A stretch of 64,000 nt of DNA from Candidatus Woesearchaeota archaeon (GCA_964419155.1 CAYQOK010000001.1:3623-67622); one strand, 5' to 3'. Positions 10,767-15,404 are shown, numbered from the stretch's first letter. Notes: generated by a model not told the origin, from the sequence alone. Made by a program: numbers and translations.

Positions 10767-10846
10767 GCCTCCATCGCATAATGGTATTGCACCGGCCTTG
10801 AGAGCCGGGCCCTATGGGCTTCCCGGTTCGATTCCGGGTGGGGGCG
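10767..10846 (+). tRNA. tRNA-Ser (anticodon TGA), class II with long variable arm
   Basis: GC-rich island in AT-rich DNA. Acceptor stem GCCTCCA/TGGGGGC with one G-U pair. Anticodon stem CCGGC/GCCGG with loop CTTGAGA. Variable arm GCCCTATGGGC. T-arm CCGG-TTCGATT-CCGG. No encoded CCA. Folded by hand. Confidence 0.65.
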
Positions 10847-11147
10847 CTTTTTTTATAGTATCTTATATTTTTGAAAAAAGCAATGCTTTTTACTTATCCA
10901 CAGAAATTTTAATATCATTCAAATGCAAGAAAAAATATTCTATAAATTACGCCTAATTCTATTCTGACACAAATAAACTAAATTAACTCCCCTATTACCT
11001 GATTCTTCTTCTAAATAATTTAATAATGAAGTTTCAAAAGAAGGGGTAAATAGAAGTTTTTCTTTTCTCTAGCGGCCCTAAATTTATTCTTTAGATCAGT
11101 ATAGTCTTCTTACAAATCTTTTTAAATATTAGTAGTTAGTTAAAGTT

Positions 11148-14100
11148 ATGAAAAAAAGAGGGAAAAAAGAGAATTTTAAATTAATAGTTATAATCATCTT
11201 ATTATTAATATTAGTATCAAGTATTCTTTTTTTAGTTCTTTCAGATCAACTTAAAACAACTGGAAGAGTAACTGAGATTTCAAAAACTTATAATATTCTT
11301 GCTATTGGGGATTCAAATACTGTTGGAGTTGGAAATCCTGTTGGTTGTTTAACAAATTGCGATGGATATAGAAAAAAACTAATTGAGTTATTAACAAATG
11401 CAGGATATAAAGTTAATTTTGTTGGTTCAAAATCAGATGGAAATTTTCAAGATAAACAACATGAAGGAACAAGTGGTATTGGAATTGCAGGAACAAGACA
11501 AAAAATAAATAATGGAATAATAGAAAAAACAAACCCAGATATTATATTAATAATGATTGGTGCAAATGATATGTGGGTCTCTGTTCAACCGGTTTCAGGT
11601 AGAGGTCCGATATCTAATCAAAAAGCAGAATATTGGGTTTCTGAATTAAGGGGTCTGTTAAATGATATTATTCAAAGAAAACCAAATGCTAAGATTATCA
11701 TTGCAAAACCAACAACACCTAGTAATTCACAAACACCCCTTAAGGTATTTAGAAATGGTATTGAAACAATTACCTCTGAATTAAATTCTCAGGGAAAAGA
11801 CATATCTGTTATTGATTGTTCTGGTGCATCAAATGATGGAGTTCATTTTACTCCTAATGGATATAATACGCTGGCTCAAAGATGGTTTAATGAAATTGAT
11901 AATTTTTTAAAAAAACAAACATCAGATAATGTTCAAATGACCTCGGATTCAAATGATAATCTATTATCAGAAATTACCCAATATCCAATAAAGGCAGATA
12001 CTAACTCTGGAACAATTGGAAATATTTTGTCAAATAGAGAATCAAGTTATTCTTGTTCTAAAACTAATTTTAATGGTGCTTGGAAAAAATCAACTGATAC
12101 ATCCTCTGGAAAAATAATTTTAGAGTTTCAAACACCAGTTTATCCAAAAAAAGCAATTGTTTATGGAATTGATTCTTGGTTTACAAAATTAGAAGCTTGG
12201 AATGGAACTGATTGGGAGATAATTTGGATGGGGGAATCAAGTAATTGCATTACTGAAATGAATGTTAAACAAATAGATTTTAAATCAAATAAATATAGAA
12301 TTACTTCCCCTATTGGAAAATTCGGCGGAATCTATGCTGTAAAAATTATAGGAAATAAAGATGAAGTATATAATTTTCCAAGTTGCAAAAGTACTGGAAC
12401 AAAATGTGAGGTCGGAGAGGTGTGTACTACTTCATGGAAAAATTCAAATGATACTTCTATGTGTTGTGCAGATAGTTGTGAATATAGATTTTATATATTT
12501 ACATTAGACATGTCACCTGGATTTTCTTCTCTTGATGCAGTAAGAGTTGCTAAAGAATTAAACATGAATTATTATAGATTTCTTAATCATAGGTGGTATC
12601 ATTCAGAAACTAATGATGATGCATCAGAATGGCAAGAGGTTATTGATTTTTATGAGAAAACAGAAAACTCAAATATAAATCACTTTTTAGCATTTAATAG
12701 TCGGATGTCTTTTGGACCGCAATACAGGGACAGTCTTCCTTTAATAAACACTTATCAAAATATTAAAGCAACTTATGGCGATGATGCTTCGAACTATGGA
12801 TACCTGGATATTTATAAAAATGTTCTTCCTATATTAAAAGAAGGTTCAGAATTGCTTATTTTTCTAGTAGGGTATAGTAGAAATTTTAATGGATGGGGTA
12901 GTGCATTTAATACTTATTTTGGAGAAAAAAATGAATTAGGAAAATATGTTGTATGGGCAGATTTTGGATATAGTATTCCTTGTGTTGTTAATAATCCAAA
13001 TCTTTGGGAAATAGCAAATTATAATGCTCATAAACCTGCAAATAAAGTTATAATTGGCCTTTATACTTCTTCTTATACTCCTTATTATTGTATTAATTTA
13101 AGGAAAATGACTAGTGGTTGGGATCCTAATGATGTTTCTAAACAAAGAGTATTTTGGAGAGATGGATTAAAGGCAGGGGCAGGTGGAATTTATTTTTGGA
13201 ATCCCTGGATGTTCAGCACTAATGGAAGAAATTTTGATTATTATAATTGGAAAGGACAGGTATGGCCAAAAGTATCTCCTTCTTCTTCAAGAGATTGGAC
13301 ACCCGAGGGTGTTGTAGTTTCAAATACAGTGGATTTAGCTAAAAAAGAAATACCGGATTTGTGCCCTTATTGTTCATTTTGTGGAGAAGATAAAATCTAT
13401 ATGGAAGATGGATTTCATGGTGCAAGTTGTTGTTATGAAAATGAAATTGCATTAGGAAATGATTGTTTTAAAAAAGATGTGAAATATCAATGGGCAAAAA
13501 ACTCAGATAAAAATAATGTTATTGGAACCCCATCAGATAAATTTACTTGTTATGGAAATATTGATCCTCAGAGTATGTGGACCCTGTCCACAACAGCAAA
13601 GATTCCTGAATCAAGTATTGTTTTAGATTATGAAGAAAGTGTTTCTCCTAATGCACTAGTTTTATACGGAAGTTATATGGTTATAGATAAAATTGAAGCT
13701 TGGGATGGAAGTTCATGGAAAGTTTTATGGAATGGGGTAAACAAAGGATATTGTATTTCTACAATAAATTTTACAGAGCAATCATTTGAAACTAATAAAA
13801 TAAGAATTCACATTCCTTCCAAGGATTTAGGAGATATTTACAAGTTCACTAGAAGCGGAATTGATGCTGTTTTGATGATTAGCGATAGTCCTAAGAAAAT
13901 CTGTTCAGGAGAAGATTGGGATTATTCTCTTGGAGAATGTACTAATGGAAATCAATTAAAGACATGGGTAAAAATAAATGAATGTTATCAAGGAGTCGAA
14001 CATCAAGATATTGAAATAGTTTCTTGTTCAGTTACTGCTCCTGAAGTAATATCCGAACCTGATTTAGAGAATGATTCTGATGGGGATGGGGTAGTTAATG

Positions 14101-15011
14101 TTCTAGACCAATGTCCAAATACACCTAGGGGAATGAATGTATCTCAAAGTGGATGTATTATTCCAAATTGGGGAGATTATAGAAAAATATATTCTCAAAC
14201 AAAAATCAATGGCATTGTAGAAAATCTTCAGATATCAAATTCAAATGCTAGTGTATTATTTAAAAATATAGTTAAAGTAGAAAGGGCAGAAGGAAATTTA
14301 GATATTGAAAATAATGTTATTTTAGAAAATAAAAAAGTCACTATAAAAAGTCATGAAATACCTGAATTAAATAAAACAGCAATAATCACTTTTAAAAATA
14401 TAAATTTAAATGAGCCAATAATTTTAATGGATGGAGAAAATTGTAGTGAATGTAAAATAATAAATTATAGAAATAACATATTAGAAGTAGAAGTACCCCA
14501 TTTTACAACTTATGAATTAATTGAAAAAAAAGATTATGAAAATATGACTACTTCAGAACAAACTCCTGAAGCGGAAAATAATGAAAGCTCAGATACAGAT
14601 AATGATGAGAAACCGGAACCTGATGTTTTACTTCCAACAAGTGATTTTATAGAGGATAATATAAAAAATAATCCATTAGAAAAAGATCAGGAGATCATGG
14701 AGTTTAAAGATGATGATAAAGATTCAGGAGATAATAAAAATAATAAATGGATTTATTATATTTTAATAATTGTTTTAATTTTAATTGTTATTGGAATTCT
14801 TATTTGGATTTTCTTAAAAAAGAAAAAAGAAAATTCTGAAAAGAATGGGCAATTAGATAACTCAACTTTTAAACCAGATAATCCTACTCAAAAACAACAA
14901 GTAATGCCTATGCAGAGGAGAGTTTTAAGACCCTTAGACAGAAGAGGATTTGAAAGCAGAAATTTTAGAAGAAACCCTAATTTCCGACCAAGACAAAATT
15001 TTAGGTTATAA
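11148..15011 (+). CDS. Giant type-I membrane-anchored surface protein: N-terminal SGNH/GDSL hydrolase, two beta-sandwich repeats, Cys-rich modules, Ca-binding-like DxDxDG, C-terminal TM and Arg-rich tail
   Basis: Signal/TM 'IIILLLILVSSILFLVL'. SGNH blocks 'ILAIGDSNTVGVG' (I), 'IMIGANDMW' (III) and 'DGVHFTPNGY' (V). Internal repeat around 'IEAWNGTDWEIIW' / 'IEAWDGSSWKVLW'. 'DSDGDGVVNVLDQCPNT'. TM 'WIYYILIIVLILIVIGILIWIFL'. Tail rich in R/N/F. Confidence 0.6.
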   Translation: MKKRGKKENFKLIVIIILLLILVSSILFLVLSDQLKTTGRVTEISKTYNILAIGDSNTVGVGNPVGCLTNCDGYRKKLIELLTNAGYKVNFVGSKSDGNFQDKQHEGTSGIGIAGTRQKINNGIIEKTNPDIILIMIGANDMWVSVQPVSGRGPISNQKAEYWVSELRGLLNDIIQRKPNAKIIIAKPTTPSNSQTPLKVFRNGIETITSELNSQGKDISVIDCSGASNDGVHFTPNGYNTLAQRWFNEIDNFLKKQTSDNVQMTSDSNDNLLSEITQYPIKADTNSGTIGNILSNRESSYSCSKTNFNGAWKKSTDTSSGKIILEFQTPVYPKKAIVYGIDSWFTKLEAWNGTDWEIIWMGESSNCITEMNVKQIDFKSNKYRITSPIGKFGGIYAVKIIGNKDEVYNFPSCKSTGTKCEVGEVCTTSWKNSNDTSMCCADSCEYRFYIFTLDMSPGFSSLDAVRVAKELNMNYYRFLNHRWYHSETNDDASEWQEVIDFYEKTENSNINHFLAFNSRMSFGPQYRDSLPLINTYQNIKATYGDDASNYGYLDIYKNVLPILKEGSELLIFLVGYSRNFNGWGSAFNTYFGEKNELGKYVVWADFGYSIPCVVNNPNLWEIANYNAHKPANKVIIGLYTSSYTPYYCINLRKMTSGWDPNDVSKQRVFWRDGLKAGAGGIYFWNPWMFSTNGRNFDYYNWKGQVWPKVSPSSSRDWTPEGVVVSNTVDLAKKEIPDLCPYCSFCGEDKIYMEDGFHGASCCYENEIALGNDCFKKDVKYQWAKNSDKNNVIGTPSDKFTCYGNIDPQSMWTLSTTAKIPESSIVLDYEESVSPNALVLYGSYMVIDKIEAWDGSSWKVLWNGVNKGYCISTINFTEQSFETNKIRIHIPSKDLGDIYKFTRSGIDAVLMISDSPKKICSGEDWDYSLGECTNGNQLKTWVKINECYQGVEHQDIEIVSCSVTAPEVISEPDLENDSDGDGVVNVLDQCPNTPRGMNVSQSGCIIPNWGDYRKIYSQTKINGIVENLQISNSNASVLFKNIVKVERAEGNLDIENNVILENKKVTIKSHEIPELNKTAIITFKNINLNEPIILMDGENCSECKIINYRNNILEVEVPHFTTYELIEKKDYENMTTSEQTPEAENNESSDTDNDEKPEPDVLLPTSDFIEDNIKNNPLEKDQEIMEFKDDDKDSGDNKNNKWIYYILIIVLILIVIGILIWIFLKKKKENSEKNGQLDNSTFKPDNPTQKQQVMPMQRRVLRPLDRRGFESRNFRRNPNFRPRQNFRL

Positions 15012-15404
15012 TTCAAAAGAATTATCTACTTTTTTAGAAACTTCTAATAATCTATTAAACATTAATTCTGAATCTTTTTTTAATTCTTCAATTGCACCTG
15101 ATAATGACTTTCCCCTTAATGCAATCTTTCTTTTTTCTCTTATGATTATTCCACTTTCCATAAGCCCCCTAACATGGTGATTTATTACATAAGGTTCTAA
15201 TTTTAATGATTTTGAAATAACTTCTGTTGAAACTAAATCTTGTTCTGAGACTAAGTTAAGAAGTTCATATAATACCTTAAAAGAAATGCATTCAGTGTCC
15301 CTTCCATTCATCAATCCAAGACTATTACAGATCCATCTAACATTTTCTTTAAGATTTATTTCTCTAGGTTTATCTAAATTTTTTATAGTTATTCTTTGTC
15401 TCAT
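15006..15404 (-). CDS. Putative winged-helix transcriptional regulator
   Basis: 132 aa. 'ISKSLKLEPYVINHHVRGLMESGIIIREKR' resembles a wHTH recognition helix plus wing. Confidence 0.4.
   Translation of the reverse strand: MRQRITIKNLDKPREINLKENVRWICNSLGLMNGRDTECISFKVLYELLNLVSEQDLVSTEVISKSLKLEPYVINHHVRGLMESGIIIREKRKIALRGKSLSGAIEELKKDSELMFNRLLEVSKKVDNSFEL

Follow-up and report, generated by a model that had tools for sequence, protein, structure and literature searches.

The stretch of DNA analysed here (the window) comprises 64,000 nucleotides (nt) from a Candidatus Woesearchaeota archaeon (GCA_964419155.1, CAYQOK010000001.1:3623-67622), and the gene in question lies at positions 11148-15011 of its plus strand. 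The encoded protein is predicted to be anchored in the membrane and exposed at the cell surface, with an SGNH esterase head near its N-terminus and, directly before its C-terminal anchor, a homolog of the Nup98/Nup145 autoproteolytic domain (peptidase S59). The Nup98/Nup145 autopeptidase is usually regarded as a hallmark of the eukaryotic nuclear pore. Taken as a whole, the protein is probably, though far from certainly, a surface glycan O-deacetylase and glycan binder on a self-cleaving stalk, whose two parts would be held together non-covalently and could break away from each other.

Gene and domain architecture

The features of the gene are as follows, with positions counted from the first nucleotide of the window and amino acid (aa) positions of the protein in brackets. 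Predicted local distance difference test scores of the structure models are given as pLDDT.

11121-11128, plus strand: TATA-box-like element TTTAAATA, read off the sequence, ending 20 nt before the ATG
11148-15011, plus strand: complete open reading frame (ORF) with an ATG start, 1287 aa plus stop codon
11148-11258, plus strand: predicted N-terminal export signal or signal-anchor (aa 1-37), seven K/R followed by a 20-residue hydrophobic core (aa 12-31, from hydropathy)
11280-11909, plus strand: SGNH/GDSL hydrolase domain of the CE3-like acetyl-esterase type (aa 45-254), from Pfam, PDB matches and conserved blocks
11967-12362, plus strand: predicted galactose-binding-like (discoidin/CBM32-like) beta-sandwich module A (aa 274-405)
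12363-12479, plus strand: Cys-rich knot 1 (aa 406-444), six Cys with a CC doublet, low model confidence
12480-13352, plus strand: sequence-orphan domain of about 290 aa, probable (beta/alpha)8 barrel (aa 445-735), low-confidence model
13353-13484, plus strand: Cys-rich knot 2 (aa 736-779), six Cys, CPYCSFC...CC...C
13485-13892, plus strand: predicted galactose-binding-like (CBM32-like) beta-sandwich module B (aa 780-915), paralog of module A
13893-14033, plus strand: small 4-Cys 'DW' beta module (aa 916-962) with C919, C931, C946 and C960, pLDDT about 90
14061-14165, plus strand: thrombospondin type 3 (TSP3)-like Ca-binding loop, DxDxDGxxxxxDxCP...GC (aa 972-1006), sub-threshold match to Pfam TSP_3
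14166-14528, plus strand: homolog of the Nup98/Nup145 autoproteolytic domain (peptidase S59, PF04096; aa 1007-1127)
14499-14507, plus strand: predicted autocleavage tripeptide H1118-F1119-T1120, to be cut between F1119 and T1120, aligned with Nup98 H-F-S(A)
14529-14738, plus strand: acidic low-complexity linker (aa 1128-1197), 24 D/E in 70 residues
14748-14816, plus strand: transmembrane (TM) helix (aa 1201-1223), from hydropathy, with KKKK directly after it
14829-15008, plus strand: basic Arg/Pro-rich cytoplasmic tail (aa 1228-1287), 14 K/R (11 of them R) and six P in 60 residues, ending NFRPRQNFRL

Because the window is so AT-rich (G+C about 24-31% throughout), an ORF of 1287 aa is not a product of chance. 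Along the gene, the opposite strand has no ORF of at least 80 aa, save for a 6-nt convergent overlap at the stop codon, and the identical protein sequence is present in an NCBI contig (P0154, in cluster P0001; P numbers denote proteins and L numbers contigs). Exactly two hydrophobic segments are found by hydropathy (aa 5-37 and aa 1197-1227), and the protein thus has the make-up of a type I (bitopic) membrane surface protein, with an export-type segment at the N-terminus and a single C-terminal TM helix with a positive-inside flank. It contains 29 Cys, clustered at aa 413-444 (6), 739-773 (6) and 919-960 (4). About 1000 residues are without Pfam assignment; two structure predictions were made, for aa 274-780 and aa 780-1130.

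A preliminary description of the window had proposed a 1287-aa protein at just this position with a signal or TM segment, a complete SGNH set (GDS, GxND, DxxH), two repeated beta-sandwich-like modules, Cys-rich modules, a DxDxDG motif, an acidic linker, a C-terminal TM helix and an Arg-rich tail, as well as a cadherin-like protein at the start of the window. All of these parts were recovered, including the two on which it made its proposal depend, conserved catalytic residues and an N-terminal export-type hydrophobic segment. Its domain list was incomplete, in that the orphan domain at aa 445-735 and the S59 homolog at aa 1007-1127 had been missed. Among the Pfam families that it suggested searching for, Lipase_GDSL_2 is found above its cut-off, TSP_3 is found below it, and F5_F8_type_C is not matched.

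The Arg/Pro-rich tails of several related proteins end much like that of the window protein (NFRPRQNFRL, PSFRFRQGR, LPRPRQPRL, PGSNFR and RPPVFRR, in the set formed by the window protein, P0006, P0012, P0013, P0017, P0021 and P0025). These endings, shared by archaeal members with a TM anchor, may represent a conserved cytoplasmic motif for sorting or binding.

A Nup98-type domain before the membrane anchor

In the structure prediction for aa 780-1130 (26-sequence alignment, mean pLDDT 84.8), the last 120 residues are modelled with pLDDT 96-98 and have the fold of the Nup98 C-terminal domain. When a profile of 25 S59-like domains was searched against all PDB sequences, the 17 best matches were nucleoporin autoproteolytic domains (best E value 1.4e-4). 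Singly, 24 of the 25 domains match PF04096 (Nup98-96 autopeptidase S59; best E value 2.8e-10), and every other Pfam family is matched by two of them at most. ZU5 was considered instead of S59 and rejected, as no member of the 25 matches it. The motifs F-x-I-G...G-x-I-x-F and LN[KR]xA are shared with Nup98, and V-P-H1118-F1119-T1120-T-Y aligns with V-S-H-F-S(A)-K-Y of Nup98, so that a His-Phe-Ser/Thr tripeptide stands at the Nup98 cleavage position. TYELIE, the segment after the predicted cleavage site, forms a strand of the domain's own sheet in the model. This matches the state of Nup96, the N-terminus of which remains bound to Nup98.

His-Phe-Ser is the autocleavage site in Nup98 and PIDD1, where the Ser hydroxyl attacks the Phe-Ser bond in an N-to-O acyl shift (PMC9162469). 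A His at -2 and a Ser, Thr or Cys nucleophile are known requirements for cleavage, and NLRP1 and CARD8 cleave with Ser at -2, between the F and the second S of SFS (PMC9162469). From the aligned tripeptide and the predicted fold, we lean slightly towards self-cleavage of the window domain between F1119 and T1120.

Several observations weigh against this assignment. The window protein matches PF04096 at 19.6 bits (E value 0.0011, profile positions 23-147 of 148), below the cut-off of 28.4, for which reason the domain is unannotated; it is placed in S59 by fold and motif, with a hidden Markov model score short of the threshold, whereas relatives in the same alignment, among them several proteins that end in PG_binding_1, reach 31.7-34.7 bits. 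Among 45 domains of the family, the tripeptide is GFS in 22, HFT in 11, HFS in seven and SFS in five. As G or S takes the place of the -2 His in 27 of the 45, cleavage is perhaps not universal. Furthermore, Nup116-type domains, which have the same fold and do not cleave, are among the structural matches. All three observations would also fit a non-cleaving beta-sandwich that only acts as a rigid spacer or as a docking module of the stalk, and the protein would then be an ordinary type I surface enzyme with a covalent anchor. We regard this as rather unlikely: the full H-F-T is kept at the aligned site of the window protein, the almost invariant [ST] at +1 and F at -1 across the S59-like family would be hard to explain in a mere spacer, and SFS is cleavage-competent in NLRP1/CARD8 (PMC9162469).

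The setting of the domain differs from that of its eukaryotic counterpart. The Nup98/Nup145N domain is nucleoplasmic or cytoplasmic and belongs to a nucleoporin precursor, whereas the S59-like domain is predicted to be extracellular and juxtamembrane in prokaryotic surface proteins. It is further distinguished by the TSP3 Ca loop before it, a conserved CxxC pair, the frequent replacement of the -2 His and, in the window protein, a predicted Thr nucleophile.

The SEA domains of mucins and the GAIN domains of adhesion GPCRs are autoproteolytic modules of proteins with a large ectodomain, adhesive or enzymatic, in which they directly adjoin the membrane anchor on its outer side. An N-to-O acyl shift breaks the chain before Ser or Thr, and a beta-sheet to which both fragments contribute keeps them together. 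Their folds are unrelated to that of the S59-like domain, the analogy being one of working principle only, and the window protein gave no match to SEA or GAIN in sequence or structure. The GAIN domain and the HFS site are treated in PMC9539791 and PMC9162469.

An SGNH esterase head

Membership of the head in the SGNH hydrolases is secure on sequence grounds. PF13472 (Lipase_GDSL_2) is matched at aa 52-239 (E value 2.9e-12, 47.9 bits against a cut-off of 32.9) and PF00657 with 37.1 bits (cut-off 23.6). All four SGNH blocks are present (G54-D-S56, H105-E-G107, G138-A-N140-D141 and D230-G-V-H233), with S56, D230 and H233 as the catalytic set and the oxyanion residues in H105-E-G107-T-S-G110 together with N140. 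In an alignment of the window protein with three relatives, the block residues are invariant except for D55.

The head is similar over its whole length (aa 45-254) to CtCes3-1 of Clostridium thermocellum (PDB 2vpt), with an E value of 1e-13 from the single sequence and 1.4e-46 from the family profile, and S56, G107/G110, N140, D230 and H233 align with the same residues of that structure. A Talaromyces acetyl esterase (5b5s/5b5l) follows in the profile ranking at about 1e-24, then acetyl-xylan esterases at about 1e-9, and the ten best matches are all acetyl or acetyl-xylan esterases. We take 2vpt and 5b5l/5b5s to be CE3 members; the similarity to characterised CE3 enzymes is thus significant and full-length. 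Besides the SGNH fold and the four catalytic blocks, the motifs YR..L...L...G...FVGS and HEGxSG are common to the head and these enzymes in the alignment with CtCes3-1 and the Talaromyces enzyme. The known enzymes are small soluble or cellulosomal modules of bacteria and fungi, whereas here the domain forms the head, at the N-terminus, of an archaeal protein of 1287 aa with a membrane anchor.

The head is likely an active esterase, and its target is probably a glycan. The preliminary description had left glycans and lipids open as substrates of a surface esterase; the complete SGNH head and the membrane anchor uphold the surface esterase, and a glycan is favoured over a lipid because the repeated modules behind the head have a predicted F5/8-type-C/CBM32 fold. 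The head might instead be a lipase or lysophospholipase acting on membrane lipids of a host or of the environment. SGNH hydrolases are promiscuous, relatives are named 'lysophospholipase L1-like esterase' in their sources, and platelet-activating factor acetylhydrolases and lipolytic enzymes appear lower in the PDB list. Such a substrate nevertheless seems improbable, as the lipolytic entries lie more than 30 orders of magnitude in E value behind the ten best profile matches, and the same chain carries two CBM32-like modules and a barrel resembling those of glycosidases.

Beta-sandwich modules, Cys-rich knots and the TSP3-like loop

Modules A and B were recognised as repeats (aa ~321-395 and ~825-900, 35% identical over 75 residues, E value 5e-15), and both are predicted to be beta-sandwiches of the galactose-binding, discoidin or CBM32 type. 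Module A is the only confident part of the aa 274-780 model (pLDDT 70-93, 5-sequence alignment), and module B matches CBM32s in the aa 780-1130 model. The assignment to CBM32 holds at the level of the predicted fold only: sequence identity to known CBM32/discoidin modules is 9-16% (NanJ CBM32, 2v72; AlyQ CBM32, 7d2a; chitosan-binding DD1, 4zxe) and, as a point against sugar-binding modules, Pfam F5_F8_type_C is not matched by either module at an E value of 1 or less.

Cys-rich knots flank the central domain. All six Cys of knot 1 are invariant across five relatives, and knot 2 is kept in P0002, P0006 and P0007. Repeats of the 4-Cys 'DW' module occur in P0003, P0005, P0013 and others. In P0006, the closest full-length relative, its place is taken by a thrombospondin type 1 domain (TSP1_ADAMTS, aa 863-918, E value 2.3e-8), which is another extracellular module typical of eukaryotes in this class of proteins.

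The TSP3-like loop has the calcium-binding motif D976-S-D-G-D-G-V-V-N-V-L-D987-Q-C989-P, which contains the DxDxDG sequence (D976 to G981) of the preliminary description. In 26 relatives D976, D978, D980, D987, C989, G1002, C1003 and P1006 are invariant. There is a single repeat, and its match to Pfam TSP_3 (PF02412; E value 8.3e-4, 19.4 bits) falls below the cut-off of 25.

A central domain without sequence relatives in known families

The segment between the two knots (aa 445-735) is probably a (beta/alpha)8 barrel, as its model contains eight alternating strand and helix units. A Foldseek search with the model of module A plus the barrel gave first of all glycosidases that combine a CBM with a TIM barrel (GH98, GH20 sulfo-GlcNAcase, GH10 with CBM22, and GH89), and the structural neighbours of the low-confidence central model are glycosidases, GH84 foremost. 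The residues invariant in a 4-sequence alignment are N474-Y475-Y476 (strand 2), D545-D546-A-S (strand 4), Y576 (strand 5), F606-G607 (strand 6), Y639 (strand 7) and W687 (after strand 8). The model places them at the C-terminal strand ends, which is the canonical active-site face of a TIM barrel. GH84 enzymes use an adjacent Asp-Asp pair on strand 4, to which we liken D545-D546 within the limits of a low-confidence model.

A number of results speak against an enzyme in this position. Model confidence is low (pLDDT about 50-60, 5-sequence alignment), the domain has no Pfam match at an E value of 10 or less and none in the PDB profile search, and an invariant Glu pair of the clan GH-A type is absent from it. 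Kinship of the barrel with the Spherulin4 protein P0025 or with the heads of P0012 and P0015 was tried and rejected (hhalign probabilities 0.1-7%, 2.6% for P0025), and a local likeness of GxYxDDAS to GIFFDE of Spherulin4 was discarded as evidence, the hhalign comparison being insignificant. There is consequently a considerable chance, somewhat short of even, that aa 445-735 is a non-catalytic barrel for binding or scaffolding, or no barrel at all, and that the esterase is the only enzyme of the protein. Arguing the other way are the crowding of N474, Y475, Y476, D545, D546, Y576, Y639 and W687 at the C-terminal strand ends, the glycosidase neighbours with GH84 and its Asp-Asp pair at the front, and the retention of the core in relatives in which the esterase head is absent or replaced. 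A catalytic central domain is considered doubtful.

Relatives, exchange of heads and the C-terminal cassette

An exhaustive HMMER search with aa 260-1130 against 1.84 billion representative proteins gave a list of matches that consists mostly of TSP3 repeats, so that weak relatives of the barrel may have escaped it. The core of module A, knot, barrel and knot is found in five clusters among the matches listed: P0001, which holds the window protein, P0006, P0002, P0007 and P0014, the last of these being a fragment with module A and knot 1 only. In place of the SGNH head, P0007 has Laminin_G_3 and P0006 an unassigned region, and P0002 is without a head. Conversely, a 54-57% identical SGNH head is carried on a different stalk in P0003 (L002, 4152-6299), which is made up of about eight repeated Cys-containing 'DW'/TSP1-like modules and a TM helix, without an S59-like domain; the P0003 gene adjoins MMPL/SecDF-like genes and a PadR regulator. 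As heads vary on the core and the SGNH head moves between scaffolds, the head is best seen as an exchangeable accessory and the core as the conserved unit. This core of CBM32-like modules, Cys knots and orphan barrel may represent an undescribed glycan-active family.

In P0002, the closest relative without a head, the protein stops partway through the S59-like domain, and the remainder is encoded in another frame as an 83-aa gene. In two independent assemblies (L001, 2700-3077; L005, 10276-10578), this continuation has N-S-N-S-S in place of HF[ST] and no TM helix. The split gene would be either a decayed anchor or a secreted derivative.

The C-terminal cassette of 4-Cys 'DW' module, TSP3 loop and S59-like domain is more widely distributed, with at least 46 occurrences among the 153 best representatives. 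Its anchor is a TM helix with a basic tail in archaeal contexts and PG_binding_1 in bacterial contexts. The heads on the cassette are mostly carbohydrate-active or lectin-like (BD-FAE esterase with Spherulin4, GH5-like, beta-helix/GH141-like, FGE-sulfatase and LamG). In one bacterial context (L008, 2257-8348), two adjacent genes for proteins of 1265 and 765 aa each encode a TSP3 loop, an S59-like domain with GFS and a C-terminal PG_binding_1, with PF04096 scores of 34.7 bits, above the cut-off, and 26.5 bits, just below it; their neighbours encode SecG, LemA, an M48 peptidase and an ABC binding protein. Because the S59-like domain always stands directly before the envelope anchor, whichever anchor that is, it appears to be a junction module, which is the main contextual argument for its role.

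The overall design is shared by P0025, a metagenomic protein (JGI/ENA) on the archaeal contig L009, which likewise has a signal, an esterase, a TIM-like glycan-active barrel, a 4-Cys module, a TSP3 loop, an S59-like domain, a TM helix and a basic tail. It differs in that its esterase is an alpha/beta-hydrolase rather than an SGNH enzyme, its barrel belongs to a recognised Pfam family, and its tripeptide is GFS.

The preliminary description spoke of a reduced archaeon and raised a restriction of orthologs to episymbiotic DPANN lineages; gene context is archaeal for the window protein and for P0002, P0007, P0017 and P0025, and the anchor cassette also occurs in a bacterial context. On three archaeal contigs (L007, 8776-17203; L009, 2550-9670; L011, 8776-17497), a cassette gene is found in an equivalent place, with Archease and RtcB beside it and a pilus-like T2SSE/T2SSF cluster upstream. 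The heads in this place differ, being GH5-like (P0017), BD-FAE with Spherulin4 (P0025) or LamG with the core of the window protein (P0007), as if heads were swapped at a conserved locus for surface proteins. Such swapping onto one cassette is the pattern expected under diversifying selection, for example in host-contact factors. Archease, RtcB and T2SSE/F were also looked for in the window and are absent from it. One of the contigs, L007, from an archaeal metagenome-assembled genome (GCA_964948905.1), has three S59-like cassette genes within 22 kb; the window has one in 64 kb.

A role of the window protein in host contact, as put forward in the preliminary description, is to be regarded with doubt. 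The protein might instead scavenge or remodel glycans for its own cell, be they environmental polysaccharide, its own envelope or extracellular polymeric substances, without serving attachment to a host. To this we give a fair hearing, if slightly less than even weight. Sister proteins with the same cassette have ordinary heads of the carbohydrate-active enzyme type, the bacterial branch of the cassette keeps company with SecG, an M48 peptidase and an ABC binding protein, and the window offers no connection between the gene and a locus for host interaction. The small AT-rich archaeal contigs, the pilus-like T2SSE/F genes and the many giant surface proteins are, on the other side, compatible with an episymbiotic lifestyle, and the extreme rarity of the full-length family, with heads swapped at one locus, suggests diversifying selection.

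Proposed mechanism and significance

Under the reading preferred here, of a glycan O-deacetylase and binder on a self-cleaving stalk, the N-terminal signal or anchor would export the chain, and the C-terminal TM helix, KKKK and Arg-rich tail would fix its position in the membrane with the positive side inside. The outermost SGNH esterase, of the CE3 acetyl-xylan-esterase type, would remove O-acetyl groups from a glycan; the two CBM32-like modules would bind sugars on either side of the central barrel, which would bind or cut the same glycan, possibly by way of D545/D546. The disulfide-rich, Ca-binding TSP3-like stalk would lead to the S59-like domain, in which an N-to-O acyl shift would break the chain between F1119 and T1120. 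An ectodomain of about 120 kDa would then be held non-covalently, through the strand T1120-E1126, to a stub of acidic linker, TM helix and tail. Nup98-Nup96, SEA domains and GAIN domains work on this principle. A point against a breakaway stalk lies at the other end of the chain: should the N-terminal segment be an anchor that is not removed, the ectodomain would stay tethered after cleavage.

The SGNH/CE3-like esterase, the CBM32-like fold, the TSP3 loop and the S59 fold are each of a known kind, and the esterase head alone would be ordinary. What is new is their combination and context, and above all an S59-type autoproteolytic domain as the juxta-anchor module of prokaryotic surface proteins. 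No paper describing an S59-type domain in such proteins was found in open-access and preprint full texts. Since precomputed annotations already contain a Pfam flag for some bacterial cassette members, the signal has been hidden in plain sight rather than invisible. If the S59-like domain cleaves, it would be a prokaryotic counterpart of the self-cleaving stalks of SEA and GAIN type, and the module is a concrete prokaryotic candidate for the origin of the nucleoporin domain. A broader scenario can be put forward tentatively, in which a widespread prokaryotic branch of S59 serves as a 'breakaway' surface module, is ancestral to the nucleoporin domain, and in an episymbiotic archaeon allows the ectodomain to be shed under load.

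Gene neighbourhood

The gene is surrounded by housekeeping genes with no relation to it, for HSP20, CDC48, a membrane protein of the VTT/DedA type and a small protein without assignment, and just upstream are genes for archaeal ribosomal proteins P0 and P1. Thus, the gene looks monocistronic and the genome archaeal. The position of TTTAAATA suggests that it is a putative archaeal promoter giving a leaderless mRNA. A scan for sigma-70 promoters and terminators, a method unsuited to archaea, gave fewer promoter-like sites than shuffled sequences did. A tRNA-Ser(TGA) gene at 10767-10847, 300 nt upstream of the gene, is the sole match in an Rfam scan.

The cadherin-like protein at the start of the window corresponds to an ORF at 28-2343, which is partial, running off the window start, and has Big_9, cadherin-like and PKD-like matches. 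Its visible part contains no S59-like domain, and across the 64 kb none was found beyond that of the protein described here. On the minus strand, a convergent ORF of 132 aa (15006-15404), without a Pfam match, covers the last 6 nt of the gene. The same 132-aa ORF follows the gene in the Logan contig L006, as it does in the window.

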